Source: an uncultured SAR86 cluster bacterium
GTDB taxonomy: Bacteria; Pseudomonadota; Gammaproteobacteria; Magnimaribacterales; AG-339-G14
Direction of reading: 5' to 3'
Length of the DNA stretch: 64,000 bases
Assembly (NCBI GenBank): GCA_902526045.1
Contig: CABZJI010000001.1
Span: 529,416 to 593,415, forward strand
Shown here: positions 10,042 to 47,116 of the stretch, one piece after another
Layout: every line of letters begins with the position of its first letter
Numbering within the stretch: the first letter of the stretch is position 1
Notes under the pieces: model-generated
Told to the model about the DNA's origin: nothing
What the model saw: only the letters and a program-made list of their open reading frames with translations
Database searches by the model: none
Program-made: the position numbers and the translations under genes

Positions 10042-10589
10042 AATTCTTAACTTTCATTCTAATGATATTTTCTTCAACTTTTCTTTTATCCGAAGTTTTT
10101 AAAGATCCTAAACCTTTATTTTCAAAAGATAATCCTAATTTTGTTAAATCATCTAAAGCAGTCAATTCTTGGCCAACGAAAAAATTGCACGTGAAAGAAT
10201 ATCAACCTTTAGTTTTTTGGGGAAAAGACCAGATACTGACCCAATCTGGTCGCCTCCTCAAATTTGAAACTAAAGAAGGTTTGAAGTTAGTCAATATTGA
10301 GGCAAATAGAAATAATATTGATTTTGTCTTAAGGTATTTTTTTGATTTCTATAAAATTTTGAAAGGATCTGACTTAGTTCTTAAAAGAATTTTAATTGAA
10401 GAGTTTGATTTAATGACTATAGAAGATGATTCCGGTATTAGGTTTCATATGAATAAATCAAAAATAGAAAATCAATCAGAGAACCTTAAAACATTTCTTC
10501 AAAGCAATTACTTTAACAATATAAAAGATACCTTTTCATATTTAGATCTCAGGTATCAGAACAAAGGAGCAATTGGTTTTAGGGATTAA
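10038..10589 (+). CDS. ftsQ: FtsQ-like cell division protein, short form (183 aa)
   Basis: GTG start overlaps the ftsL stop (GTGA). N-terminal TM. C-terminal YLDLRYQNKGAIGF matches FtsQ (vDLRY..g.aVgW). WP.KKLHVKEYQPLVFW resembles the end of POTRA. Directly precedes ftsA. Confidence 0.65.
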   Translation: MKFLTFILMIFSSTFLLSEVFKDPKPLFSKDNPNFVKSSKAVNSWPTKKLHVKEYQPLVFWGKDQILTQSGRLLKFETKEGLKLVNIEANRNNIDFVLRYFFDFYKILKGSDLVLKRILIEEFDLMTIEDDSGIRFHMNKSKIENQSENLKTFLQSNYFNNIKDTFSYLDLRYQNKGAIGFRD

Positions 10590-10590
10590 T

Positions 10591-11820
10591 ATGGCTACCA
10601 ACGGATCAAATAACATCAGAGTAGGAATTGACATAGGCACCTCAAAAGTCGTGTGTTTAATAGCTGAATATGTTGATCACGAATTGCGAGTTATTGGTTT
10701 AGGAAGTAAAACGTCTCAAGGTTTAAAAAATGGTGTGATAGTTGATATTGAATCAACTGTATCTGCAATAGAATCTGCGGTTAATGACGCAGAATTGATG
10801 TCTGGCAAACAAGTTACATCAGCTTTTGTAGGTATAAGTGGAGGTCATATCAATGGTTTAAATTCTGAGGGTGTTGTAGGAATAAAAGATAAAAAAGTCA
10901 AAGTTAGTGATGTTGATAAAGTCATCACTGCCGCACAAGCATATGCTATTCCAGATGACTCTCAATTGCTTCATGTTCTGCCAAGAGACTATATTATTGA
11001 TCAACAAAATGGCATCAAAGAACCTCTTGGAATGGCCGGCGTAAGACTGGAAACCAAAGTTCATCTAGTCACCTGTAACAGGAACTCTGCTCAAAACATA
11101 TCCTCCTGTATGAAAGCTTGCGGCATTACTGTCGAAGGATTTGTTTTAGAGCAACTAGCTTCTAGTTACTCAGTCCTGTCAGAAGATGAAAAAGAGTTGG
11201 GAACGTGTTTAATTGACATGGGTGGCGGAACTTCAGACGTTGCAGTTTTTCAAAATGGAGCAATAAGCCATACTGCTAATATTCCAACTTCTGGTGATCA
11301 TATTACTAAAGACATTGCTAGAGCACTACAAACTCCAAGCATGCAAGCAGAAGAACTCAAGAAGAAGTATGGCTGTGCTTCAAGTTCGATAATTCATGAA
11401 AATGAAACAATTGAGGTTCCGGGCATGGCAGGAAGAAAAAATAAAATTTTCTCAAGAATGGCCCTTGCCAGTGTAATAGAGCAGAGGTATCTAGATATTT
11501 TTGGCTTAATAAAACAAAAACTTAACTTATCTTCTTCAGAAAATATTATTCCCGCTGGAATTGTAATCACAGGGGGAACATCCAGAATGGAAGGAGTAGC
11601 TCAATTAGCAGAAGAAGTTTTTAATTCTCCTGTGCGCATTGGTTCGCCATCAGGATTGATAGGATTGACCGATATTTTAAGGAATCCAATATATGCCACT
11701 GCTGTTGGATTGGTTTTATATAGTCAGAAATCACAAGAAGAAGATCATATGAATTATTTGTTTATGAAAGACAAGAATATTTTTAATAAGGCTTTTAGGT
11801 GGATCCAAAACAATTTCTAA
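10591..11820 (+). CDS. ftsA: cell division protein FtsA
   Basis: Actin-fold motifs VGIDIGTSKV and DMGGGTSDVAVF, GGTSRMEG. ATG 10591 preferred over the in-frame TTG at 10573, which overlaps ftsQ. Confidence 0.95.
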   Translation: MATNGSNNIRVGIDIGTSKVVCLIAEYVDHELRVIGLGSKTSQGLKNGVIVDIESTVSAIESAVNDAELMSGKQVTSAFVGISGGHINGLNSEGVVGIKDKKVKVSDVDKVITAAQAYAIPDDSQLLHVLPRDYIIDQQNGIKEPLGMAGVRLETKVHLVTCNRNSAQNISSCMKACGITVEGFVLEQLASSYSVLSEDEKELGTCLIDMGGGTSDVAVFQNGAISHTANIPTSGDHITKDIARALQTPSMQAEELKKKYGCASSSIIHENETIEVPGMAGRKNKIFSRMALASVIEQRYLDIFGLIKQKLNLSSSENIIPAGIVITGGTSRMEGVAQLAEEVFNSPVRIGSPSGLIGLTDILRNPIYATAVGLVLYSQKSQEEDHMNYLFMKDKNIFNKAFRWIQNNF

Positions 11821-11838
11821 TTTAAATAAGGAGGGACT

Positions 11839-12966
11839 ATGAACTGGACCGTTGTAGAAAATGAAACTAAATCATCTGCTCTTATAAGAGTAGTCGGAGT
11901 AGGCGGAGCTGGAGGAAACGCAGTAAATCATATGGTTGAAAGCGGAATCGAAGGCGTGCAAATGATTTGTGCTAATACAGATGAGCAAGCGCTTGATACC
12001 AACCTAGCAGAATTAAAAATTACTTTAGGAACGGGAATTTCGAATGGTCTTGGAGCAGGAGGAAAACCTGAGGTTGGAAGAGATGCAGCTCTTGATGATC
12101 TCGAAAGAATTAAAACCTTGCTTGAGGGTTCTGATATGGTTTTTGTTGCAGCAGGAATGGGGGGTGGAACTGGAACTGGTGCAGCCCCAATTGTCGCTAG
12201 AGCCGCTAAAGAAATAGGTGCTTTGACAGTTGCAGTAGTCACTAAGCCATTAGAGCTTGAAATGCGTGATCAAATTGCAGATGTTGGCTTAAAAGAACTT
12301 ACTGATGAAGTTGATTCATTAATCGCAATCCCTAACCAAAAATTATTGGAAGTTCTCGGAAGAGAACATAGTCTTCTTGATGCCTTTAAGCAAGCAAACG
12401 ATGTTCTATTAGGAGCTGTTAGAGGTATATCAGATATCATCACACAAACCGGACTCGTAAACGTTGATTTTCAAGATGTTAAAACAGTAATGTCAGAAAA
12501 AGGAACAGCTATGATGGGAACTGGAATTGCAAATGGGCCAAGCAGGGCAAAAGAGGCAGCCTCTGCAGCTGTTGGAAGTCCATTGTTAGAAGATATTAAT
12601 CTAGAAAACGCAAAAGGAGTTCTTGTCAATATCACAGCAGGGCCAGATATGAAAACGGGAGAAATTGAGGAAGTTCTCGCCTTAGTAAGAGAATTTGCTG
12701 CTCAAGATGCAACAATCATACATGGTGTGGCATTTGATGATTCTATGGGAGCGGATATAAAGGTAACGATTGTTGCAACTGGCCTTGGTGGAAGGGCATC
12801 TAAAAAGACGCCCAAAAATAGCTTTGAATTTGAATCGGTTGAACCCATCCTTCCGAAGCCAGATATTTCTCATTCTTCTAGGGAAGTTAAAAAAGTTTCG
12901 TCTAGTGATTTAATGGATTCAGAATATCTAGATATTCCATCTTTCGTTAAAAAACAAATAGATTAG
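11839..12966 (+). CDS. ftsZ: cell division GTPase FtsZ
   Basis: AAGGAGG SD upstream. Tubulin signature GGGTGTGAAP. C-terminal conserved peptide EYLDIPSFVKKQ. Confidence 0.98.
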   Translation: MNWTVVENETKSSALIRVVGVGGAGGNAVNHMVESGIEGVQMICANTDEQALDTNLAELKITLGTGISNGLGAGGKPEVGRDAALDDLERIKTLLEGSDMVFVAAGMGGGTGTGAAPIVARAAKEIGALTVAVVTKPLELEMRDQIADVGLKELTDEVDSLIAIPNQKLLEVLGREHSLLDAFKQANDVLLGAVRGISDIITQTGLVNVDFQDVKTVMSEKGTAMMGTGIANGPSRAKEAASAAVGSPLLEDINLENAKGVLVNITAGPDMKTGEIEEVLALVREFAAQDATIIHGVAFDDSMGADIKVTIVATGLGGRASKKTPKNSFEFESVEPILPKPDISHSSREVKKVSSSDLMDSEYLDIPSFVKKQID

Positions 12967-12972
12967 ATTTCT

Positions 12973-14601
12973 TTGAGCCATCAAACGGAAAAAACCAGAG
13001 AACTTGTTCTCTGGTTTTTTCTTCCCATTCTTTTTTTACTTCTCTTTGTAAGACTAATATATTTCCAAATGACTGAGGCAGACTTTTCATTTTATAAAAT
13101 TGATAGTCGAATTTCACAAAGCCAAGTCATAAAGTCATCACGAGGAAAAATAGTCGATAGAAACGATCGAGTATTGGCTGAAGATATTATTTTTTATGAT
13201 ATTGGAATAGACCTTAATTACTTCTCGTTCAAACCAGACGAGATAAAATTTATTTCTAATTTATTAGATATCGAGGAACAAAATTTAAGAGAAAGATCCT
13301 CTAATCAGAGACTTAAATTCATTCAAATTTCAAAAAAAGTAAATAGGGAAAAAGCAGAAAAGCTTAAAAAAGAAAAAATTCAAGGACTAGTTTTCGACGA
13401 AAGGTACTACAGAAATTATCCCGAAGGAGAAGCCTTTTCTCAACTAATTGGGATCACTGATATAAATAATGATGGTCTTCAAGGTATAGAGCTAAGTTTT
13501 CAGAAAAGCCTTGATAGCTCAAATGGAAGAATAGACTTAAAAAGAGATGGTAACGGAAAAGTTATTGAAGAAGTGATTGCTCCAGAGAGGGATGGCAACT
13601 TAATAAAGTTATCTATTGATTCAGATTATCAATTCATTGTTTTCGATGAATTGAAAAGAGCTGTAGTTGAAAACAATGCAAGCAATGCTTCCGCAATAAT
13701 GATTGATTTAGATTCTGAAGAGATTCTAGCAATCACTAATTATCCTAGTTTTGATCCCAACGATAGAAAATCCTTATCAGATATTTCTCTAGTGACGAAC
13801 AAAGCATCGATTTCTCTTATGGAGCCTGGTTCTGTTTTAAAACCGCTTAGTATTGCTTTAGCTCTAGATGATGAATTAATTGATGAAGATACCTTGATCG
13901 ATACTAATCCTGGATGGGTTGAATTTGAGGATTATAGAACAGAGGACTTTAGAAATTATGGAGTTCTTTCGGTAAGCGAAGTTATAGCTAAATCAAGCAA
14001 TGTAGGTACTGTAAAAATATGCTCTCAAATGAACAAATCAAGAGTAATATCAGGAATGCGTTCTTTTGGAATCGGAGAGTACTTTAGTCAGATGTTTTTG
14101 AATCACAGAGAGGGATTTTTGCCGGGAGAACAAAACATTTCCCTAAGAGGTTTGGTTAGTTTATGTTACGGGTATGGTCTCCAGACAACTCTGCTGCACA
14201 TTGCAAAAGCCTATACCGGAATTTTAAATGATGGTTTCGAAGCAAATCTTAAGATTATTTCATCAGATAGCAATGAAACAAGCAGAAGAATTCTTAAAAA
14301 GGAAACTTCTAACAAGATAAAAAACATTTTAATACAAACTGTTAATAATGGGACTGGAAAACTAGCTAAAGTAGAAGGTGGAGTTGTTGGCGGAAAAACA
14401 GGGACAAGTCTAATATCTGAAGAACGAGGATATGATGAAGATTCTATAAATGCTTTATTTGTGGGATTCATTGAAAAAAATAGTTATAGATACTTGCTAG
14501 CAATAATGGTTCAAGAACCAAAAAATGATGTCTCAGGAGGCTCCGATGTTGCAGCTCCAATTTTTTCTAATGTTTTTAAATCAATTTTTGCTTCGTCATG
14601 A
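12973..14601 (+). CDS. ftsI: peptidoglycan D,D-transpeptidase FtsI (PBP3)
   Basis: TTG start 6 nt after the ftsZ stop, in the same frame. N-terminal TM anchor. SxxK (PGSVLKP), SxN (KSSNVG) and KTG (GKTGTS) motifs. Confidence 0.93.
   Translation: MSHQTEKTRELVLWFFLPILFLLLFVRLIYFQMTEADFSFYKIDSRISQSQVIKSSRGKIVDRNDRVLAEDIIFYDIGIDLNYFSFKPDEIKFISNLLDIEEQNLRERSSNQRLKFIQISKKVNREKAEKLKKEKIQGLVFDERYYRNYPEGEAFSQLIGITDINNDGLQGIELSFQKSLDSSNGRIDLKRDGNGKVIEEVIAPERDGNLIKLSIDSDYQFIVFDELKRAVVENNASNASAIMIDLDSEEILAITNYPSFDPNDRKSLSDISLVTNKASISLMEPGSVLKPLSIALALDDELIDEDTLIDTNPGWVEFEDYRTEDFRNYGVLSVSEVIAKSSNVGTVKICSQMNKSRVISGMRSFGIGEYFSQMFLNHREGFLPGEQNISLRGLVSLCYGYGLQTTLLHIAKAYTGILNDGFEANLKIISSDSNETSRRILKKETSNKIKNILIQTVNNGTGKLAKVEGGVVGGKTGTSLISEERGYDEDSINALFVGFIEKNSYRYLLAIMVQEPKNDVSGGSDVAAPIFSNVFKSIFASS
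12988..13021. terminator. strong palindrome / intrinsic-terminator-like hairpin with A-tract and T-tract (bidirectional form)
   Basis: GAAAAAACCAGAGAAC (12988-13003), tt, GTTCTCTGGTTTTTTC (13006-13021): perfect 16-nt arms. The GC-containing core CCAGAGAAC/GTTCTCTGG is followed by TTTTTT. It begins 22 nt after the ftsZ stop, inside codons 6-17 of ftsI. Confidence 0.6.
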
Positions 14602-37046: not shown

Positions 37047-38063
37047 ATGGCTAGATCTTCAAAGGAATCCCAAACAAAAGATAGAGTAAAATCTCTACAG
37101 TCCGCCCTTAGTCAAATTGAGACCCAATTTGGCCCTGGAACAATAATGAGGATGGGAGATAGAGAGGTTCAGAATATACCTTCTATTTCAACGGGTTCAT
37201 TAGGTCTTGATGTTGCTCTCGGAATAGGTGGACTGCCAAAAGGAAGAGTGGTTGAAATTTTTGGGCCTGAATCTTCAGGGAAAACAACTTTAACTCTTCA
37301 AATTATCGCTGAGTGTCAAAAAGCAGGTGGAACCGCAGCATTCATTGATGCAGAACATGCACTGGACCCTTCTTATGCCGAAAAAATTGGTGTAAATGTT
37401 GATGACTTACTTTTATCTCAGCCTGATACAGGAGAGCAAGCTCTTGAAGTAGCAGATATTATGGTTAAGTCAGAAAGTGTTGATGTGCTAGTAATTGATT
37501 CTGTTGCTGCCCTTGTCCCAAGAGCTGAAATCGAAGGTGATATGGGTGATCATCATGTTGGTCTGCAAGCTAGATTAATGTCTCAAGCTTTGAGAAAAAT
37601 AACTGGAAGCATACAAAAATCAAACACATTAGTTATTTTTATCAATCAAATCAGAATGAAAATCGGCGTTATGTTTGGCAATCCAGAAACAACAACTGGA
37701 GGAAATGCACTCAAGTTTTACTCTTCTGTGAGACTGGATATTAGAAGAATCGGAACTGTTAAGGATGGAGATGAAGTAACGGGAAATGAAACACGAGTAA
37801 AAGTAGTAAAAAATAAAGTTTCACCTCCATTCAGGCAAGCTGAATTCCAAATTATTTATAACAAAGGGATCAATAGAACAGGCGAACTTGTCGATATGGC
37901 CGCTGAGAAGAAAATAATTGAAAAGGCTGGAGCTTGGTATTCCTACGAAGGAGAAAAAATTGGCCAAGGTAAATCAAACGCCTGTGAATTTTTAGATGCC
38001 AATCAAAAGATATCTCAAGAAATAGAAAAAAAACTATTCAATGCCATTAAGGCTTCAGCTTAG
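37047..38063 (+). CDS. recA: recombinase RecA
   Basis: Walker [34 protein letters not shown] motifs. Confidence 0.98.
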
Positions 38064-39303
38064 TTAAAATATTTTTTTTATCTTCTTTGAGTGAAGTTCC
38101 CTCAGATCTAACTTTTAGTTCCAGAAGTTTTTCCTTTTGGTTTTTTTCACTTATTATTAATTGAAATGGAATACCGGTAAGATCTGCATCCTTAAATTTC
38201 TTTCCTGGCGATTCATTTCTATCATCTATTATCGAATCTACTCCAATTTTTGTTAGGTCGTTTTGAAGAGACTCAGCTTCAGTAAGATGATTTTCATCAT
38301 CACCAATGATAATTATTATTGCTTCAAATGGCGCAATTGATCTTGGAAAGATAATTCCATCCTGATCATAATTTTGTTCTATTGAAGCAGCAATAATTCT
38401 TGATATGCCTATTCCGTAACATCCCATCAGAGGATTTATTTTTCCCTCTTTAGTTTGAATAGAGAGAGATAATGACTTGCTATATTTATCACCTAATTGA
38501 AATATATGACCAACTTCAATTCCTCTTTTAATTAAATATTTTTTTCCATCTTTCTCATGAAGATGATCAATTATTTCTTGATCAGATTTCTCTTCAAATA
38601 ACTCTAGATTACTAGCAAATAATTCATCATCGCTAAAAATTATTTTATCCTCTCCTGAATCCGCTAAAACGTGAAATTCTTCTGATCTAGATCCACCAAT
38701 TGCTCCTGAATCAGCTAAAACTATTCTGTAATCAAATCCAATTTCATTAAATATTTTTTGATATGCATCTTTCATCAAGTCGTAACTTTCTTTCATGCCT
38801 TTTTCATTAATATCAAATGAGTAGGCATCCTTCATAAGAAACTCACGGGAACGCATTACTCCAAATCTTGGTCTAATTTCATCTCTAAACTTGGTTTGAA
38901 TTTGATAATAATTAGCAGGAAGATCTTTTGGACTGTTCAAAGTTTTTCTTGCAATATCTGTAATTATTTCTTCATGTGTTGGCCCCAATACAAAACTTCT
39001 ATCATTTCTGTCTTCAAATTTAAGTAATTCTGGACCATACTCTGACAATCTTTTGGATTCCTCCCATAAATCAGAGGGTTGAACCATAGGCATTAGTATT
39101 TCTTGAGCTCCTGCCTGATCCATACATTTTCTGACAATGTTCTCGACCTTTTTGAGAGATCTTAATCCTAAGGGCAACCAGGTATAGATCCCTGAGGCGT
39201 TTAGTTTGATCATTGAGGATCTGAGCATGAGTTTATGACTCATTAACTCAGCGTCAGAAGGTGAGTCTTTTAACGTTTTATAGTGATAAGAGCTAGTTTT
39301 CAT
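38047..39303 (-). CDS. proS: prolyl-tRNA synthetase, bacterial type but lacking the INS editing domain (418 aa)
   Basis: Class II motifs [25 protein letters not shown] and [25 protein letters not shown]. Only about 25 aa separate [10 protein letters not shown]...NLELFEE from [10 protein letters not shown], where E. coli has about 185 aa. Confidence 0.9.
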
Positions 39304-39618: not shown

Positions 39619-41382
39619 ATGAAATATTCTAGCTGCGGTCATGTCAATATTGCCAACATTGAAGAGCCAACAAGACTTAGGGGTTGGATTGATAGCTTAA
39701 GAGATCATGGCGGTGTAATTTTTATAGATTTAAGAGATGAAACAGGCATAACTCAGGTAGTTGTAGAGCCTGAAAATAAAAAATTTTTCTCAATGGCTGA
39801 AAGATGCAGGTCAGAATTTGTGCTATCTGTGGATGGAAAAATTAGAAAAAGACCTGACGGGACTATCAATAAACAAATACCTACAGGAGAAGTTGAGTTA
39901 TTAGTCTCTTCATTTGAAATTTTATCAGAATCAGATCCTCTTCCATTTCAGCTTGATGACCATTCATCAGCAGGAGAGGAGGTAAGATTAAAATATAGAT
40001 TTTTAGATCTTAGACGATCTGAAATGCAAAATAATATTAGAGCAAGATCAAAAGTTACATCTTCGATAAGAGAGTTCATGGACAAAGAAGGATTTCTGGA
40101 TATAGAAACTCCAATGATGACAAAAGCAACTCCAGAAGGAGCTAGAGATTTTCTTGTTCCAAGCAGAATTTCACGCGGCAGTTTTTACGCTTTGCCACAG
40201 TCTCCTCAATTATTTAAGCAACTTTTAATGGCATCTGGATTTGAGAAGTATTATCAAATTGTACGATGCTTTAGAGACGAAGATACACGGGCAGATAGGC
40301 AACCTGAATTCACTCAGCTCGACATTGAAAAGGCATTTACTGATGAAGATGAGATTATCAATCTATCCGAAAAATTGATTAAGTTAGTATTTAAGAAGTT
40401 ACTCGACATAAAGCTGCCTAAATTTACAAAAATGACTTACTCAGAGGCAATAGAAAGGTTTGGGAGCGATAAACCTGACCTAAGAATCAATCTTGAACTT
40501 AAAGAAGTAAAGGAAATCTTCCTAGATTCTGATTTCAAGGTCTTTTCTGGTCCTGCTAATGATTTTAATAGTCGAGTTGTGGCTTTAAAAATTTCTTCAG
40601 AACTTACAAGAAGTAAAATTGATTCTTATACAGAATTTGTTAGAAAGTTTGGAGCAAAAGGTTTGGCTTATATCAAGGTAAATGATTTATCAAAAGGAAA
40701 CGATGGATTGCAGTCGCCAATCTTAAAATTTTTATCTCAAAAAGAAATTGATTCTTTATTTAAATTACTAGACGTAAAAGAGGGAGATACCGTTTTTTTT
40801 GGAGCTGGGCATAAAAAAATTGTTTCTGATTCGATCGGAGCATTAAGAAATAAAATAGCTGAAGATTTTGATTTAATTCAAAAGTCGTGGAAACCGGTTT
40901 GGATAACAAATTGGCCTCTATTTGAGGAATCTATTGGAGGAGATCTTTCTCCTGCTCATCACCCCTTTACCAGCTTCAAGGGTTCAATAGAAGATCTTGA
41001 GGCCGATCCTAGAGCAGTAGAAGCCAATGCATACGACCTTGTTATAAATGGGACTGAAGTTGGAGGTGGATCGATAAGAATTCACAAATCTTCTGAGCAG
41101 GCAAAAGTTCTGGAAGTATTGGGTATATCTGAAAACGAGGCACAAAATAAGTTCGGTTTTTTTCTTGATGCTTTGAATTATGGATTTCCTCCCCATGGCG
41201 GTATAGCTTTTGGTTTAGATCGCCTTCTTATGCTCATGATGGGAGCAGACTCTATTAGATCTGTGATTCCCTTTCCAAAAACTCAGTCAGCTTTATGTTT
41301 ACTGACGGATGCTCCTGCTAAGGTAGATTCTGAACAGCTTGAAGAGCTAGGTATTTCACTAACCGATCCTGACGGAGATTAA
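39619..41382 (+). CDS. aspS: aspartyl-tRNA synthetase
   Basis: GWI...RDHGGVIFIDLRD OB-fold start, FRDEDTRADRQPEFTQLD, GGGSIRIH, GIAFGLDRL. Confidence 0.97.
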   Translation: MKYSSCGHVNIANIEEPTRLRGWIDSLRDHGGVIFIDLRDETGITQVVVEPENKKFFSMAERCRSEFVLSVDGKIRKRPDGTINKQIPTGEVELLVSSFEILSESDPLPFQLDDHSSAGEEVRLKYRFLDLRRSEMQNNIRARSKVTSSIREFMDKEGFLDIETPMMTKATPEGARDFLVPSRISRGSFYALPQSPQLFKQLLMASGFEKYYQIVRCFRDEDTRADRQPEFTQLDIEKAFTDEDEIINLSEKLIKLVFKKLLDIKLPKFTKMTYSEAIERFGSDKPDLRINLELKEVKEIFLDSDFKVFSGPANDFNSRVVALKISSELTRSKIDSYTEFVRKFGAKGLAYIKVNDLSKGNDGLQSPILKFLSQKEIDSLFKLLDVKEGDTVFFGAGHKKIVSDSIGALRNKIAEDFDLIQKSWKPVWITNWPLFEESIGGDLSPAHHPFTSFKGSIEDLEADPRAVEANAYDLVINGTEVGGGSIRIHKSSEQAKVLEVLGISENEAQNKFGFFLDALNYGFPPHGGIAFGLDRLLMLMMGADSIRSVIPFPKTQSALCLLTDAPAKVDSEQLEELGISLTDPDGD

Positions 41383-41383
41383 G

Positions 41384-42115
41384 ATGGCAGGTCATTCCAA
41401 GTGGGCAAATATTAAGCATAGAAAAGGTCGCCAAGATGAAAAAAAACAAAAAATCTTTTCCAAGTTTATTAGAGAACTGACAGTCGCATCAAGACTAGGA
41501 GGCCCAATTGCAGCAGATAATCCCAGACTTCGGTTAGCTTTAGATAAAGCTTTGGGCGCCAACATGCCTAAAGATACTATTGATAGAGCTATTGCAAGGG
41601 GGGCTGGAAATTCAGAAGCTGATAATCTGGAAGAAATAAAATATGAAGGCTATGGTCCAAATGGTGTGGCGATATTAATCGATGCAATGACAGATAACAG
41701 GAATAGAACCGTTGCAGAGGTTAGACATGCTTTTACTAAAGCTGGCGGAAGCCTTGGAACAGACGGTTCGGTTGCTTATCAATTTGAATCTAAGGGAATA
41801 ATCTCCATTTCAGGTTTATCAGAAGATGAGACACTCGAACTCGTCATTGACTATGATATTGAGGAAATTGAATCGCAAGGCGTGATTGTTACAGTGATTT
41901 GTAAACCTGATAATTTTTTAAATATAAAAGAAATTTTGGAGCAGTCCTATGCAGGGATTGAAAATGCAGAGATTACTATGCTTCCATCAAATTCAGTAGA
42001 GTTAGGAGATGAAGATTCAGAAAAAGTTATTAGGCTAATTGATACTCTTGAAGACTTAGATGATGTTCAAAATGTTTATACAAATGCTGAACTAAGTGAG
42101 GCATCAGTAACATAG
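41384..42115 (+). CDS. yebC: YebC/PmpR-family transcriptional regulator
   Basis: MAGHSKWANIKHRKG start is diagnostic. Confidence 0.96.
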   Translation: MAGHSKWANIKHRKGRQDEKKQKIFSKFIRELTVASRLGGPIAADNPRLRLALDKALGANMPKDTIDRAIARGAGNSEADNLEEIKYEGYGPNGVAILIDAMTDNRNRTVAEVRHAFTKAGGSLGTDGSVAYQFESKGIISISGLSEDETLELVIDYDIEEIESQGVIVTVICKPDNFLNIKEILEQSYAGIENAEITMLPSNSVELGDEDSEKVIRLIDTLEDLDDVQNVYTNAELSEASVT

Positions 42116-42547
42116 ATGACTAATTCGAGAAACAAAGGAGCTTCTTTTGAAAGAGAAATTGCTAATGAATTAACTACAAGACTTGAACTAAAGCATCAAC
42201 TTAAGAGAATACTTGAGCAAACTAGGGAAAAACATCTACCAGATTTAATTCTTGGAAGATGGTATCTGGAATGCAAAAGATATGGTTCTGGCAATGAGCC
42301 AATGGATTCGTGGTGGGAACAAGTAGTATTAGCATCAGGGAGGGATAAAATTCCTGCTCTAATCTATAAATTTGATAGAAGACCAATAAAGGTGAGAGTA
42401 CCGTTGTCAATCTTAAATGAAAATTTTAGCTTCAAAGAAAATGTCACTTGTGATCTATCTTTTGAGGACTTTATTACATTGATAAAAACTGAATTTTCTG
42501 AAGATTTAGAAAATCACAACAACAAACTGAAAGACTTTCAGTATTAG
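42116..42547 (+). CDS. PD-(D/E)xK nuclease resembling archaeal Hjc / VRR-NUC structure-specific endonucleases (putative Holliday junction resolvase)
   Basis: 143 aa. RNKGASFEREIANEL (compare Hjc KGxxxEREL), PDLILGRWYLECKRY (D43...E52-x-K54 catalytic pattern), IPALIYKF (compare Hjc IPVLAVKF). ATG abuts the yebC stop. Occupies the ruvC position. Confidence 0.6.
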   Translation: MTNSRNKGASFEREIANELTTRLELKHQLKRILEQTREKHLPDLILGRWYLECKRYGSGNEPMDSWWEQVVLASGRDKIPALIYKFDRRPIKVRVPLSILNENFSFKENVTCDLSFEDFITLIKTEFSEDLENHNNKLKDFQY

Positions 42548-42551
42548 TCAA

Positions 42552-42968
42552 ATGCACAGGTTACCTCTTCGAATATATTATGAAGATACAGATGCACAAG
42601 GAATCGTTTATCATTCAAAATATCTAAATTTTTTTGAAAGAGCGCGCGCTGAATGTTTAAGAGAAATTGGCTATCGACAAGAAGAATTATTAGAAGAAGA
42701 CATTGCGTTTATCGTAAAGAAACAAGAAATTGAATATTTTTCTCCGGCAAAACTTGATGACGAGATTGTAATAAAAACGATTTTATCCTCTACAAAAAAT
42801 GTGTCTTTTACTTTCATACAATCGGCCATCCTTAAAAATGATGAGAATCAAGTTCTTTGTAAAGGACAGGTTTACTGTGGCTGTATTTCTCTAAAAAGGA
42901 ATGCTCCTGCTAAAATTCCAGAGGAATTAAGAGTTAAAATGAAATCTTTAGTGCAAAACAATGTCTGA
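42552..42968 (+). CDS. ybgC: tol-pal-associated acyl-CoA thioesterase (4HBT fold)
   Basis: RIYYEDTDAQGIVYHSKYLNFFERAR motif. Precedes tolQ. Confidence 0.9.
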   Translation: MHRLPLRIYYEDTDAQGIVYHSKYLNFFERARAECLREIGYRQEELLEEDIAFIVKKQEIEYFSPAKLDDEIVIKTILSSTKNVSFTFIQSAILKNDENQVLCKGQVYCGCISLKRNAPAKIPEELRVKMKSLVQNNV

Positions 42969-43617
42969 TTATTTTTCAATTTATTCCTTAATTATTAATG
43001 CAAGCATAGTTGTTCAACTAGTAATAGGAATTCTTCTGCTGGCCTCAATTGGCTCTTGGGTGATAATAGTAGAAAAATGGATAGTCACAAACAATGCCTT
43101 AAAAGAATTTTTTCTTTTTGAACAATTTTTTTGGTCAGGCGAATCATTGAAAGATATTTATGATGACCTAAAAGCAAAAAAAGATCTTGTTGGAATAGAA
43201 TCAATTTTTTATGAGATTTATGAAGACTCAATAGCTCAAGATAGTCAGGAGCTACATAAGGATGACTTAACTGCCAGATTTAAACGTGTGTCAAAAGTTT
43301 CTTTGATGCGACAAGAGGATCTTTTAGAATCAAGAATTTCATTCCTATCAACAGTTGCTTCGGCAAGTCCTTATATTGGCTTATTTGGTACTGTCTGGGG
43401 AATAATGAATTCATTTAGAGGATTGGCTCAGACTTCGCAGGCAACTCTTTCCGTTGTTGCGCCAGGAATATCAGAAGCCTTAATTGCAACAGCACTGGGT
43501 TTATTTGCTGCAATTCCAGCTTTAATCGCGTACAACTTTTTTGTGAAAAGAATCAATACTATCTTGAATCGATACGAGAGTTTCATTGAAGAATTTCAAA
43601 ATCTTTTGGCAAGGTAA
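42961..43617 (+). CDS. tolQ: Tol-Pal system protein TolQ
   Basis: MotA/TolQ/ExbB-family polytopic protein. GLFGTVWGIM and APGISEALIATA motifs. Confidence 0.93.
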   Translation: MSDYFSIYSLIINASIVVQLVIGILLLASIGSWVIIVEKWIVTNNALKEFFLFEQFFWSGESLKDIYDDLKAKKDLVGIESIFYEIYEDSIAQDSQELHKDDLTARFKRVSKVSLMRQEDLLESRISFLSTVASASPYIGLFGTVWGIMNSFRGLAQTSQATLSVVAPGISEALIATALGLFAAIPALIAYNFFVKRINTILNRYESFIEEFQNLLAR

Positions 43618-44040
43618 ATGAGAAAATCAGACAGAAGTCAAATCAACGAAATAAATGTGGTTCCTTATGTTGATGTGATGCTCGTTTTGCTGGTAGTTTT
43701 TATGGTAACTGCGCCTTTGTTAGTCCAAGGAATAAAAATTGATTTGCCTGAAACAACTGCATCTGTGCTAGAGGAGAGTGAATTAGAGGAACTTACTATA
43801 ACAATCGATAAGAAAGGGCAGTTTTTTATAGAATTTGAATCCTATAAAAATAAATCATTTTCCATTGACACTTTGAAACCTATCTTGGAGAACATATTCA
43901 AGATTAATGACAATTTGAATATTTATATTAGGGGAGATAAAGATGTTGAATATGACAATGTCTTAAAACTTCTCGCCGTTATTCAAAATCTTGATCCAAT
44001 ATCAATTAACTTAATTTCCGATCCCATTAACAATGATTAA
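43618..44040 (+). CDS. tolR: Tol-Pal system protein TolR
   Basis: ExbD/TolR family. INVVPYVDVMLVLLVVFM TM containing the conserved Asp. Confidence 0.92.
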   Translation: MRKSDRSQINEINVVPYVDVMLVLLVVFMVTAPLLVQGIKIDLPETTASVLEESELEELTITIDKKGQFFIEFESYKNKSFSIDTLKPILENIFKINDNLNIYIRGDKDVEYDNVLKLLAVIQNLDPISINLISDPINND

Positions 44041-44623
44041 TTTAATAGCGGGGTTTTTTTGCTCTTTCTTTTTACATGCATTTTTGTTCAGCTTCTTTTT
44101 CAACATTGATTTTAATGATTATTCAGAAGAAAAGATGATTCAGCTGCCCGTTAATCTAATCTTTGAAGAAAAAATAGAAACTAAATCAAAAAAATCGTCA
44201 TCTAAAAATGTCAAAACCACTTCGTCCTCTTTTTCAGAAGATGTCAAATCTAAAAATGATTTTGAGTCTGATGTGAATTCTTTTTTTTCTAATCTTGAAA
44301 AAGATAGAGATAGAGTTGAACAAATATCTACTCAATCAGAAGTCTTAAAAATAGCAGCTAAAATCAGAGCAGAATATGAGTTTTTATGGCAAAAACCTAA
44401 AAATCTACCTGAAGATTTATTTGTTAAAGCCCTTATCTCTATTGCTCCTTCTGGTGAGGTTGTTAATTATGAAATTCTGAATAAAAGCAGCAATGAGGTT
44501 TTCGATAGATCTATTAGAATAGCTCTTGACAGGATAAGCTCTTTTGATTTCATAAAAAACATTTCAAGAGATGATTTCGAGAAAAATTTTAGACAATTTA
44601 ACTTACAATTTTCTTCCAATTGA
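44033..44623 (+). CDS. tolA: short TolA-like protein (196 aa)
   Basis: N-terminal TM, Ser/Lys-rich linker, C-terminal TolA/TonB-like domain. Position between tolR and tolB. Confidence 0.7.
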   Translation: MINLIAGFFCSFFLHAFLFSFFFNIDFNDYSEEKMIQLPVNLIFEEKIETKSKKSSSKNVKTTSSSFSEDVKSKNDFESDVNSFFSNLEKDRDRVEQISTQSEVLKIAAKIRAEYEFLWQKPKNLPEDLFVKALISIAPSGEVVNYEILNKSSNEVFDRSIRIALDRISSFDFIKNISRDDFEKNFRQFNLQFSSN

Positions 44624-44624
44624 T

Positions 44625-45902
44625 ATGAGTCTTAAAGTATTTTTTATTTCTATCTTTCTCTTTTCGTTATCTATTTTTTCAAATATAACAATTGAAATCA
44701 GCAGGGGAACAGAAGAGCCTCCAAGAATTGCCATTGTTCCTTTTCTTTATGATGATCAATCAATATCTTATTTGTTAACTAATCAAATATCAGAAAATTT
44801 ATCTTTGTTTGGAGAGTTTGAAATAATTGCCAACAGCGATCTGATAGCCTTTCCATCATCTCCAGAAGATTTTTTTTACAATGATTGGAAGATATTAGAT
44901 ATTGATTACGTTGTAGCAGGATTCATAAGCCTTGAGGATGTTTCATCAAAATTCATTGTAAATTACTTTCTCTTTGATATAAGGCAAGGAAGAAATCTTC
45001 TCAATGGGACTGCAAGGTCATCAGCAGATTCTCTTGTGCTCTCATCTCATAAAATGAGTAATAGAATTTACAAGCAGATAACTGGAGTAGATGGAATTTT
45101 TACAACGAAACTTATGTATATTCTTAATCCTGGGAAGGATAAGTATCAATTAAATATTTGTGATATCAACGGTGATAATGAGATTACTTTGTTCGATTCA
45201 CCTGAACCGATAATGTCGCCAGATTGGTCTCACGATGGGAAAAAAATAAGCTACGTATCTTTTGAGAACGGGAATTCCGAAATTTTTATTCAAGATATTT
45301 CCTCAGGGAAAAGAAATTCATTAAGAAGATACCCTGGAATAAATAGTGCTCCTGTTTGGTCTCCAAATGGAAATTATTTAGCTTTCGTTTCATCAAGAAG
45401 CGGGAATCCAGATGTTTATTTATATGATTTAAAGACCGAAAAGATTTCCAGAATTACTGCGCATTACGGAATAGATACAGAACCTTCTTTCTCTGCAAAC
45501 GGGAGGAAACTTCTCTTTACTTCCAATAGGTCAGGAACACCTCAGTTATATGAAGTTAGCCTAATTACAAGAAAAATTTCAAGGATAACTTTTGACGGTA
45601 ACTACAATGCTAGAGGAAGATATTTCCCAGATGGGAAGAATATTGTTTTTGTTCATAGATCTGAAGAAAAGTTTCATATTTCAATTAAACGTCTTGGAAA
45701 AAGTGGTTTAAAGATGCTTACTGAGACATCTTTAGATGAATCTCCGAGCGTTTCTCCTAATAATAACTTCATTATTTATGCCACGAAAGACAGCGAAAAG
45801 GGCTATTTAGCAGGAATTTCACTAGATGGGCTGGCAAAGTTTAAAATACCTAGTAAAATTGGCGCTATTCGGGAACCTGTTTGGTCTCCTTTCTTGAACT
45901 AA
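44625..45902 (+). CDS. tolB: Tol-Pal system beta-propeller protein TolB
   Basis: ATG 44625 gives signal peptide MSLKVFFISIFLFSLSIFS and follows the tolA stop. The track start at 44571 overlaps tolA. Repeated PxWSPDG-like blades (SPDWSHDGKK, APVWSPNGNY, EPSFSANGRK). Confidence 0.93.
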   Translation: MSLKVFFISIFLFSLSIFSNITIEISRGTEEPPRIAIVPFLYDDQSISYLLTNQISENLSLFGEFEIIANSDLIAFPSSPEDFFYNDWKILDIDYVVAGFISLEDVSSKFIVNYFLFDIRQGRNLLNGTARSSADSLVLSSHKMSNRIYKQITGVDGIFTTKLMYILNPGKDKYQLNICDINGDNEITLFDSPEPIMSPDWSHDGKKISYVSFENGNSEIFIQDISSGKRNSLRRYPGINSAPVWSPNGNYLAFVSSRSGNPDVYLYDLKTEKISRITAHYGIDTEPSFSANGRKLLFTSNRSGTPQLYEVSLITRKISRITFDGNYNARGRYFPDGKNIVFVHRSEEKFHISIKRLGKSGLKMLTETSLDESPSVSPNNNFIIYATKDSEKGYLAGISLDGLAKFKIPSKIGAIREPVWSPFLN

Positions 45903-45943
45903 TTGAAGAATTTTGGGTCAAATATAATAGAACGTTTAACTAG

Positions 45944-46423
45944 ATGAGGATAAAAATGGAACCAATAAGTATTTTTCTAATATCAATATTGGCATGTTTA
46001 GGAAGTGGCTGTGCTAATGATGTTGCTGACGATGTATCTGCATCTAGCTATGCTTCTGTTTCTGGTCAATCAGCTCAGATGGGACCAAAAATAGACGTAA
46101 ATTTGCCGGATAAGGTTTATTTTGAATTTGATAACTTTGACCTCGGCGATGATGCCATGGATACTTTGGAGCAATACATTCGTTTTGCTAAAAGAGCAAA
46201 GGCAATTAGACTAGAGGGTCATTGCGATGAGAGAGGAACAAGAGAATATAACCTTGCGTTGGGTGAAAAAAGAGCTCAATCCGTAAGTGAATTCTTAATA
46301 GTCAACGGCATCTCATCCTCAAAGATCGATGTTGTTTCTTATGGAGAAGAAAGACCAGACAGACTTGGCTCTTCGGAATCAGCATATAAAGCTAACAGGA
46401 GAGTTGAGATATCTCTTTACTAG
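45944..46423 (+). CDS. pal: peptidoglycan-associated lipoprotein Pal
   Basis: Lipobox LACLGSGC. OmpA-like domain (FEFDNFDL, EGHCDERGTREYNLALGEKRA, NRRVE). Alternative start at 45956. Confidence 0.93.
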   Translation: MRIKMEPISIFLISILACLGSGCANDVADDVSASSYASVSGQSAQMGPKIDVNLPDKVYFEFDNFDLGDDAMDTLEQYIRFAKRAKAIRLEGHCDERGTREYNLALGEKRAQSVSEFLIVNGISSSKIDVVSYGEERPDRLGSSESAYKANRRVEISLY

Positions 46424-46429
46424 CCTTAA

Positions 46430-47116
46430 GTGATTAAAAGATCTCTTGTACTTTTATTTTTTTTAATATCTTCTTCGACTTGGGCACAAGATTCTGAGTC
46501 GGAAAGGCTATTATTAAATAAAATTAATTCCCTTGAAAAAGAAATCCAAACACTCTTAAGTCAGCTTGAAGAAATTAAATATAAGTTAAATAGAATTGAA
46601 GATACACAACAGCTTCGATACGTAGATTTAGATAAAAGAATCCACGAGTTAGAAGGCATCTTGTTGGTTCAAGAAGAAATAGAAGGAACAAACATAGATG
46701 AATTAGACCCTTTAGCAGGAATAATTGAAGAGGATGATGCTAGTAATGAATTTGACCTTTGGTCAGAGTCACTTCAACTCATTGAAGATGGAAGATTTGC
46801 GGAGGCATCAGAAAAATTAAGATACTTGATTCTTTCTTTTCCTGAGGGAAATTTTATCGGAGATGCTTTATTTTGGTTGGGAGAAATATATTTTCTTCAA
46901 GAAAATTACATCGATTCATCTGATTCATTTAACGAATTAATTTCTTCTTATGAAGAGCATAGCAGGATACCAGACGCAAACTATAAATTAGGAATGATAA
47001 GTTTAAGGTCAGAAGATTTTAATAAGGCAAAAGAATATTTTAATTACTTAATTAACAATTATCCTGACTCTGGAGCTGGTATACTCGCTGCCGAAGAGCT
47101 TAAGAAGTTTCAATAA
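46430..47116 (+). CDS. cpoB: cell division coordinator CpoB (YbgF)
   Basis: GTG start. Signal peptide, N-terminal coiled-coil, C-terminal TPR repeats. Last gene of the tol-pal cluster. Confidence 0.85.
   Translation: MIKRSLVLLFFLISSSTWAQDSESERLLLNKINSLEKEIQTLLSQLEEIKYKLNRIEDTQQLRYVDLDKRIHELEGILLVQEEIEGTNIDELDPLAGIIEEDDASNEFDLWSESLQLIEDGRFAEASEKLRYLILSFPEGNFIGDALFWLGEIYFLQENYIDSSDSFNELISSYEEHSRIPDANYKLGMISLRSEDFNKAKEYFNYLINNYPDSGAGILAAEELKKFQ

Follow-up and report, generated by a model that had tools for sequence, protein, structure and literature searches.

RuvC cuts Holliday (four-way) junctions only at a preferred sequence, and RuvAB brings such sites to it; Hjc-type enzymes and most phage resolvases are structure-selective and have no RuvC-like sequence requirement. 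Few recombination functions of bacteria are as conserved as RuvAB; in a survey of 117 genomes it was missing from only two RecA-positive ones, those of the insect endosymbiont Wigglesworthia and of Aquifex, both of which keep RecG (Rocha et al., PMC1193525). We analysed a 64-kb stretch of DNA (the window; 64 000 nucleotides of contig CABZJI010000001.1) from an uncultured bacterium of the SAR86 cluster, in which a gene for a 143-residue nuclease lies between yebC and ybgC. SAR86 bacteria are free-living and RecA-positive and form one of the most abundant bacterial groups of the surface ocean. We regard it as probable that in SAR86 a domesticated phage resolvase resembling archaeal Hjc has displaced ruvCAB in situ.

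RusA, whose fold differs from that of the PD-(D/E)xK nucleases, is encoded by a cryptic prophage of E. coli, and its activation suppresses ruv mutants. In both cases a phage-derived resolvase takes over, or in SAR86 would take over, from RuvABC, and the SAR86 arrangement looks like a natural, fixed version of this laboratory suppressor; rusA, however, is accessory and belongs to a prophage; the SAR86 nuclease is encoded by a core operon gene under housekeeping-level constraint. RusA can stand in for RuvABC and may depend on RecG to shift junctions to cleavable sequences (PMC3403352). The replacement of RuvC by RecU in Firmicutes and Mollicutes is a second known case, in which a PD-(D/E)xK resolvase has displaced the RNase-H-fold RuvC lineage-wide (PMC1193525; PMC3403352). 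RecU lineages retain RuvAB, and recU usually lies far from ruvAB (PMC3403352), whereas in SAR86 RuvA and RuvB appear to have been lost too and the candidate substitute stands in the ruv locus itself. The family of the nuclease, Pfam PF24608 (PDDEXK_15), is likewise already known and was described from phages; the SAR86 protein is a direct member, yet its gene is chromosomal, single-copy and syntenic. The absence of Ruv markers from SAR86 has also been reported (Ramfelt et al., PMC11582366), and some SAR86 orthologs carry automatic 'Holliday junction resolvase' labels (JGI, UniRef). The published literature searched held no link between the Ruv loss of SAR86 and the nuclease, and nothing relevant was found on PDDEXK_15/PF24608, on SAR86 in connection with Holliday junctions or RecG, or on displacement of RuvC by Hjc in bacteria. 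What we propose as new is thus that, in a gammaproteobacterium that lives freely and has RecA, the whole of ruvCAB has been replaced in situ and order-wide by a domesticated Hjc-like resolvase of phage descent.

Family, predicted fold and putative active site of the nuclease

The open reading frame (ORF) of the nuclease starts with the ATG at 42116, directly after the yebC stop codon, and ends with the TAG at 42545–42547, 4 nucleotides before the ybgC start at 42552. Its product matches PF24608 with 44.8 bits against a cut-off of 27 (E = 1.6e-11, residues 3–102), which bears out the nuclease assignment of the original prediction, and the same model matches 59 of the 59 aligned relatives. The protein also matches PHROG 244 (E = 1e-14), annotated as a Holliday junction resolvase ('RusA-like'), and a phmmer search of 1.84 billion cluster representatives returned 376 relatives at E ≤ 1e-3, mostly 120–190 residues long. 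In an alignment of 59 diverse family members (27–81% identity), K7, G8, E12, R31, Q35, D43, E52 and K54 are invariant, and R5, L33, W66, W67, Q69, P80 and L82 are conserved in at least 90%. The peptides RNKGASFEREIANEL (with K7, G8 and E12), PDLILGRWYLECKRY (with D43, E52 and K54) and IPALIYKF carry the motifs of the protein; on rereading of the ORF, the coordinates, peptides and residue numbers given earlier for E12, D43, E52 and K54 were all correct.

Searching PDB sequences with the single nuclease sequence gave noise only. The family profile ranked the Hjc of P. furiosus first (1GEF, E = 0.013); 2WCZ, 2WCW and 4TKD came next, with the A. fulgidus and S. solfataricus enzymes among the later matches, and in these alignments KG..ER, D, E-x-K and IP.L..K are in register with Hjc. 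An hhalign comparison of the family alignment with two Hjc sequences, those printed in the profile search output, gave a probability of 95.2% and an E-value of 2.8e-8 over 89 columns. The alignment of the Asp, Glu and Lys residues with the Hjc active site, on which the original prediction had been built, thus stands in both comparisons.

The AlphaFold2 model (predicted local distance difference test score 88.1, predicted template-modelling score 0.85) has an α–β–β–α–β–β core, with helices at residues 4–22 and 64–74 and strands at residues 44–46, 49–56, 79–86 and 92–96, and continues at its C-terminus with a further strand and two helices (residues 111–139). When this model was compared with the PDB using Foldseek, ranks 1–13 were all occupied by Hjc, Hje or ST1444 (probability 0.87–1.00, target-normalised template-modelling (TM) score 0.47–0.60), so the fold comparison points the same way as the profiles. 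The 16 best matches are PD-(D/E)xK enzymes, as are several lower ones; Cas4, restriction enzymes and lambda exonuclease are found at lower ranks, and unrelated proteins are also present below rank 16. Among the named matches in BFVD are phage 'Holliday junction resolvase' entries. The model has the layout of the PD-(D/E)xK superfamily, with D43 just before strand 44–46 and with E52 and K54 within strand 49–56. E12, D43, E52 and K54, in register with Hjc, form the putative catalytic tetrad. By all three methods (profile search, hhalign and Foldseek), archaeal Hjc is the nearest characterised relative of the nuclease.

With Hjc and Hje (PF01870; PDB 1GEF, 2WCZ, 1OB9 and 2EO0) the nuclease shares a small PD-(D/E)xK core (∼120–140 residues), an N-terminal helix with the KGxxxER motif and, in register, D...E-x-K on two successive strands and IP.L..K on the strand after these. 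It differs from them in its sequence (18–20% identity), its bacterial host and its phage source. The additional conserved residues R31, Q35 and W66-W67-x-Q69 are not present in the two Hjc sequences compared, and the C-terminal strand and helices of the model would be an addition to the archaeal fold.

The remaining candidate families were rejected. The original prediction had also considered the VRR-NUC pattern, which is not supported: PF08774 matches neither the nuclease (E ≤ 1) nor its 59 relatives (E ≤ 0.01). RusA is not supported either, with no Pfam RusA match at E ≤ 1 and a predicted PD-(D/E)xK fold, the 'RusA-like' wording of PHROG being a functional label. Neither the window protein nor its relatives match Pfam RecU, and the BFVD structure search lists a phage protein labelled RecU no higher than rank 35. 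The Pfam models of RuvA, RuvB and RuvC (PF02075, RNase-H fold) do not match the ORF. The protein also falls outside the Hjc family proper, with no match to the Pfam Hjc model (PF01870) at E ≤ 1. NCBIfam gave no match to the nuclease, no PADLOC-DB defence family matched at E ≤ 1, and one family member matches Mrr_cat weakly (E = 0.009). Two metagenomic proteins with 93–97% identity to the window nuclease have an additional Pfam domain, PF06071 in P0006 (155 residues) and PF05711 in P0009 (200 residues); their source contigs measure only 606 and 1365 bp, and instead of true fusions they probably represent chimeric assemblies or gene calls that read through.

The yebC–ybgC interval in SAR86

The gene order of Pseudomonas, which we take to be aspS-yebC-ruvCAB-ybgC-tolQRAB-pal-cpoB, recurs in the window with the nuclease gene in the place of ruvCAB. 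The colinear flanking genes named in the original prediction were each confirmed by Pfam, and the complete block reads recA, proS (on the opposite strand), a zinc-ribbon ORF, aspS, yebC, the nuclease gene, ybgC, tolQRAB, pal and cpoB. In E. coli (NC_000913.3) ruvC directly follows yebC. The two genes share an operon in about half of RuvC-containing bacteria, and YebC, YbgC, TolB, TolQ and TolR are the top genomic-neighbourhood (STRING) partners of RuvA, RuvB and RuvC (Zhang et al., 2012, PMC3403352). Because of this adjacency and these operon and neighbourhood data, the earlier wording that the nuclease sits exactly where ruvCAB should be is a fair description of its position.

Species-representative genomes were scanned for the nuclease, which gave, besides the window, 75 SAR86 loci (45–98% protein identity) of up to ∼20 kb (±10 kb), including those of the closed genomes CP151794.1 (HIMB1674) and CP097968.1 (TMED112-A1). 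No match to E. coli RuvA, RuvB or RuvC (NC_000913.3) was found by tblastn at E < 1e-5 in the window or the 75 loci, in agreement with the prediction that the slot holds no ruvCAB and that the ORF is not RuvC. E. coli RecG also found no tblastn match in the window or loci, a result that says nothing on the rest of the genome. For the genome as a whole we turned to published marker data (PMC11582366 Table S1), according to which the closed genome HIMB1674 lacks the RuvA_N (PF01330), RuvA_C (PF07499), RuvB_C (PF05491) and RuvC (PF02075) markers; from this literature evidence, a complete ruvCAB elsewhere in that genome is not expected. Also absent from HIMB1674 are RadA (TIGR00416), RecN (TIGR00634), MutS_I (PF01624) and MutL_C (PF01119), and the Ruv, RadA, RecN, MutS_I and MutL_C markers score 0 in almost all of the SAR86 genomes listed there, whereas HIMB1674 has RecF, RecO, RecR, the TRCF domain and PF03652 (YqgF/RuvX) (PMC11582366 Table S1). 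In the same table HIMB1674 also lacks the markers of ClpB, PrfC, LolA/LolD, BioB, FtsY (TIGR00064) and the 'signal peptide binding domain' of the signal recognition particle (SRP; PF02978), and for SRP and FtsY the missing marker may reflect divergence and not true loss. The main text of that study uses neither 'resolvase' nor 'nuclease' and therefore proposes no substitute for Ruv (Ramfelt et al., PMC11582366). The Ruv loss explains, through the Ruv markers, the depressed CheckM completeness of SAR86 genomes.

The order recA...aspS-yebC-nuclease-(ybgC)-tolQ is found in the window and in all 75 loci. In 76 of 76 SAR86 genomes the nuclease ATG is placed −11 to +3 nucleotides from the yebC stop, and the translational coupling to yebC suggested for the window is thus a tight junction throughout the order. 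Downstream, the nuclease stop lies −16 to +4 nucleotides from the next gene in all loci but one. In the most divergent group, the TMED112 clade (L065–L075, including CP097968.1), ybgC is gone and the start of tolQ either overlaps the nuclease stop or directly adjoins it; tblastn with the window YbgC found no ybgC in these loci, and their tol-pal cluster apparently lacks its usual first gene. One locus (L056, AH-779-I09) has a 3.2-kb insertion (10454–13577) between the nuclease gene and ybgC, and its nuclease gene keeps a 4-nucleotide ATGA overlap with yebC. Since the junction with yebC survives both the loss of ybgC and this insertion, yebC is the conserved linkage. The insertion holds ORFs of 551 and 478 residues that by eye resemble a thiamine pyrophosphate-dependent, acetolactate-synthase-like enzyme and an aldehyde dehydrogenase. 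In the closest relative of this locus (L053) the nuclease stop is followed by non-coding-looking sequence, and the contig ends before ybgC or tolQ.

The ratio of non-synonymous to synonymous substitution rates (dN/dS) of the nuclease gene is 0.058 and 0.026 in two clades, in which its neighbours have values of 0.038 and 0.036 (yebC), 0.072 and 0.058 (tolQ), 0.085 and 0.053 (aspS) and 0.018 and 0.011 (recA). The nuclease is under purifying selection comparable to that on its housekeeping neighbours. The orthologous coding regions contain no internal stops. Altogether 42 positions are invariant across the 76 SAR86 orthologs, and 14 family-conserved residues, with K7, G8, E12, R31, Q35, D43, E52 and K54 among them, are invariant in all 76. 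Its hundreds of homologs, a dN/dS of 0.03–0.06 and these 42 invariant residues show that the ORF is a genuine gene, not a reading frame that arose by chance. One of the loci (L057; PAWD01000035.1, 11 850 bp) has the database title 'MAG: Thaumarchaeota archaeon isolate SAT137'. Mis-binning of a SAR86 contig is almost certain here, because it carries the full SAR86 recA-aspS-yebC-nuclease-ybgC-tolQ block, with 56–76% protein identity to the window.

Phage origin and proposed displacement of RuvABC

All relatives outside SAR86 whose context was inspected (32–49% identity) lie in marine phage or phage-like contigs. Five roseophages and Phage C72C1 carry a homolog (32–39% identity) inside a replication and recombination module: in roseophage CRP-811 (L078) it directly adjoins genes for a PD-(D/E)XK exonuclease-like protein, a single-stranded DNA-binding protein (SSB) and a RepA helicase, and in Phage C72C1 it lies between PAPS reductase and replication-initiator genes, with a Sak-like annealase and an SSB a few kilobases away. 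Metagenomic contigs with a homolog of 45% identity (P0278) encode DNA polymerase A, thymidylate synthase, dUTPase, PDDEXK_1 and a small terminase subunit; two homologs of 36% identity (P0276 and P0279; L082–L086) are near a VapE-type primase, DUF3799, a weak integrase-like match and a terminase; and the nearest outgroup (P0129, 49%; L087–L089) is encoded immediately downstream of a DUF3799 gene. Phage junction resolvases commonly sit beside exonuclease-like or DUF3799-type genes. The exonuclease-like and PF24608 genes are adjacent in L087–L089 and in CRP-811, and are ∼5.5 kb apart on opposite strands in L082–L086; the adjacent pairs suggest a two-gene exonuclease–resolvase recombination cassette in marine phages. 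SAR86 members are the only cellular members of PF24608 seen in a genome scan based on query-specific peptide patterns, in which distant cellular members were not searched for. In a neighbour-joining tree all SAR86 sequences fall into one split that contains no known phage sequence. Of the 'archaeal/phage-type' source named in the original prediction, the phage part is upheld by the marine phage contexts of the relatives and the archaeal part is not.

The displacement of RuvABC by a non-orthologous enzyme, as put forward in that prediction, is supported by the fixed synteny in 76 of 76 genomes, by the dN/dS of 0.03–0.06 and by the published absence of Ruv markers. The ancestor of the SAR86 order (Magnimaribacterales) would have captured the nuclease gene from a marine phage recombination module; the gene would have landed between yebC and ybgC, and ruvC, ruvA and ruvB would have been lost. 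Because recA has been kept, strand exchange and hence junction formation are retained, and RecA with RecFOR would still generate joint molecules (four-way junctions). The enzyme would bind these as an Hjc-like homodimer and make paired resolving nicks; Mg2+ would be bound by E12, D43 and E52, and K54 would be the catalytic lysine. We infer the junction-resolving activity, the dimerisation and the role in vivo from the likeness to Hjc. A structure-selective resolvase needs no cognate sequence, so that the RuvAB motor, which scans for cleavable sequences, would become dispensable, which would explain the joint loss of the three ruv genes; their deletion together under streamlining would have saved ∼1.7 kb in a genome of 1.0–1.6 Mb.

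Several observations weigh against this displacement. The similarity to Hjc is remote, with 18–20% identity, Foldseek E-values of 2e-3 to 9e-2 and TM scores of ∼0.5–0.6, and the Pfam Hjc model matches one of the 59 family members, weakly (E = 0.0026); for these reasons we file the nuclease as an Hjc-like member of PF24608 and leave it outside the Hjc family. PF24608 itself is uncharacterised and is named 'Phage putative PDDEXK endonuclease' by Pfam. The bootstrap support of the SAR86 split is weak (30–37 of 100 on 126 columns), so that a single acquisition by SAR86 is likely but unproven. The genome-wide absence of RuvABC is taken from published calls of hidden Markov model markers, and a few genomes score positive for RuvA or RuvC markers (PMC11582366 Table S1). 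YqgF/RuvX (PF03652), which is present in SAR86, could in principle be the resolvase.

The first alternative is that the nuclease is a housekeeping structure-specific enzyme with another main substrate, such as stalled or reversed forks, flaps, D-loops or segregation intermediates, and that junctions are handled otherwise, for example by a RecG-type helicase with a topoisomerase, or double junctions are avoided. PD-(D/E)xK nucleases with nearly identical cores act on many substrates, and the Foldseek matches to Cas4, restriction enzymes and lambda exonuclease, although they fall at lower ranks, are a reminder of this breadth; the top structural and profile matches, by contrast, are all junction resolvases. 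That PF24608 is a family of no known activity leaves room for such a role, yet its phage homologs sit in replication and recombination modules, several of them directly beside an exonuclease-like gene. The recombination pathway of SAR86 may have been rewired, given its loss of RadA, RecN, MutS and MutL, but the nuclease occupies the very place of ruvC beside yebC. We consider a main substrate other than the junction unlikely.

A second alternative makes YqgF/RuvX, or an unrecognised protein, the true SAR86 resolvase and assigns the nuclease to YebC or to Tol-Pal, its position in the ruv slot being coincidental. PF03652 is present in HIMB1674 and in most SAR86 genomes (PMC11582366), and YqgF has been suggested as a possible resolvase where RuvC and RecU are both missing; according to the same source, however, the large majority of bacteria have it alongside RuvC or RecU, and its resolvase activity was undemonstrated (PMC1193525). 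The nuclease gene is translationally coupled to yebC in all genomes, but yebC–ruvC coupling is itself ancestral in about half of RuvC-containing bacteria (PMC3403352), so that the coupling speaks for ruvC having been replaced rather than for a function specific to YebC. The TMED112 clade, moreover, has lost ybgC and kept the nuclease. This explanation is improbable.

A selfish or defensive phage remnant (a restriction-like nuclease or what is left of a prophage) that takes no part in host recombination, to which the phage-borne occurrence of the family outside SAR86 and the weak Mrr_cat match of one member might point, is very improbable, and a prophage remnant was rejected, since the gene is fixed at one locus in 76 of 76 SAR86 genomes (45–100% identity) with the dN/dS of housekeeping genes, has no flanking phage genes, integrase or methylase and no PADLOC match, and forms part of the aspS-yebC-tol operon, where its stop and start codons overlap with those of its neighbours.

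If the displacement of ruvCAB by the Hjc-like nuclease is true, a 143-residue phage resolvase has taken the place of the 712-residue RuvABC at the same locus, a clean natural case of in situ non-orthologous displacement driven by streamlining. It would give the E. coli rusA suppressor a parallel in nature and would provide the first proposed cellular role for PF24608. Taken with the loss of MutS and MutL, RadA and RecN, the displacement is relevant to the part that recombination and mutation play in the population structure of SAR86. Since HIMB1674 is in culture and two genomes are closed, the hypothesis can be tested directly. A further step, which we consider rather unlikely, is that SAR86 completes RecA-dependent recombination without any branch-migration motor (no RuvAB, no RadA and possibly no RecG), using a phage-derived, sequence-independent Hjc-like resolvase that is co-translated with YebC. 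A motor-free SAR86 would represent a minimal bacterial resolution pathway, in which RuvAB is dispensable once the resolvase is sequence-independent.

Features of the window

The window is tightly packed and has a GC content of ∼33%. Between aspS and pal it contains no terminator-like sites, and promoter-like matches are rarer than in shuffled sequence. The features of the nuclease gene and its neighbourhood are summarized in Table 1.

Table 1. Features of the nuclease gene and the surrounding block, in window coordinates
Feature	Position	Strand	Basis
Nuclease gene (proposed Holliday junction resolvase)	42116..42547	+	143 residues; PF24608 (PDDEXK_15), Hjc-like
Codon of E12, acidic residue of helix 1, aligned with Hjc E9	42149..42151	+	KGxxxER alignment
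Codon of D43, 'PD' aspartate directly before strand 44–46	42242..42244	+	Aligned with the Hjc catalytic Asp
Codons of E52-C53-K54, (D/E)xK motif in strand 49–56	42269..42277	+	Aligned with Hjc I-E-V-K
yebC (TACO1/YebC)	41384..42115	+	Pfam E = 2e-56; TAG at 42113–42115
ybgC (thioesterase), first gene of the tol-pal cluster	42552..42968	+	Pfam 4HBT_2
tolQ-tolR-tolA-tolB-pal-cpoB	42961..47116	+	Pfam MotA_ExbB, ExbD, TonB_2, TolB_N + PD40, OmpA, TolA_bind_tri + TPR
aspS	39619..41382	+	Pfam tRNA-synt_2 + GAD
recA	37047..38063	+	Pfam RecA E = 2e-141; present in 67 loci
proS (prolyl-tRNA synthetase)	38047–39303	−	Pfam

The tolA ORF (44033–44623, + strand) is very short, with 196 residues and the TonB_2 C-terminal domain as its only Pfam match. 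The longest tolB ORF (44571–45902, + strand) overlaps it by 53 nucleotides, and the true tolB start is therefore probably located further downstream. The prolyl-tRNA synthetase (ProRS) ORF encodes 418 residues, in which Pfam detects only the class II core and the anticodon-binding domain. The usual gammaproteobacterial ProRS has ∼570 residues and an inserted editing (INS) domain; by this comparison, the SAR86 enzyme may be minimised and without cis-editing.

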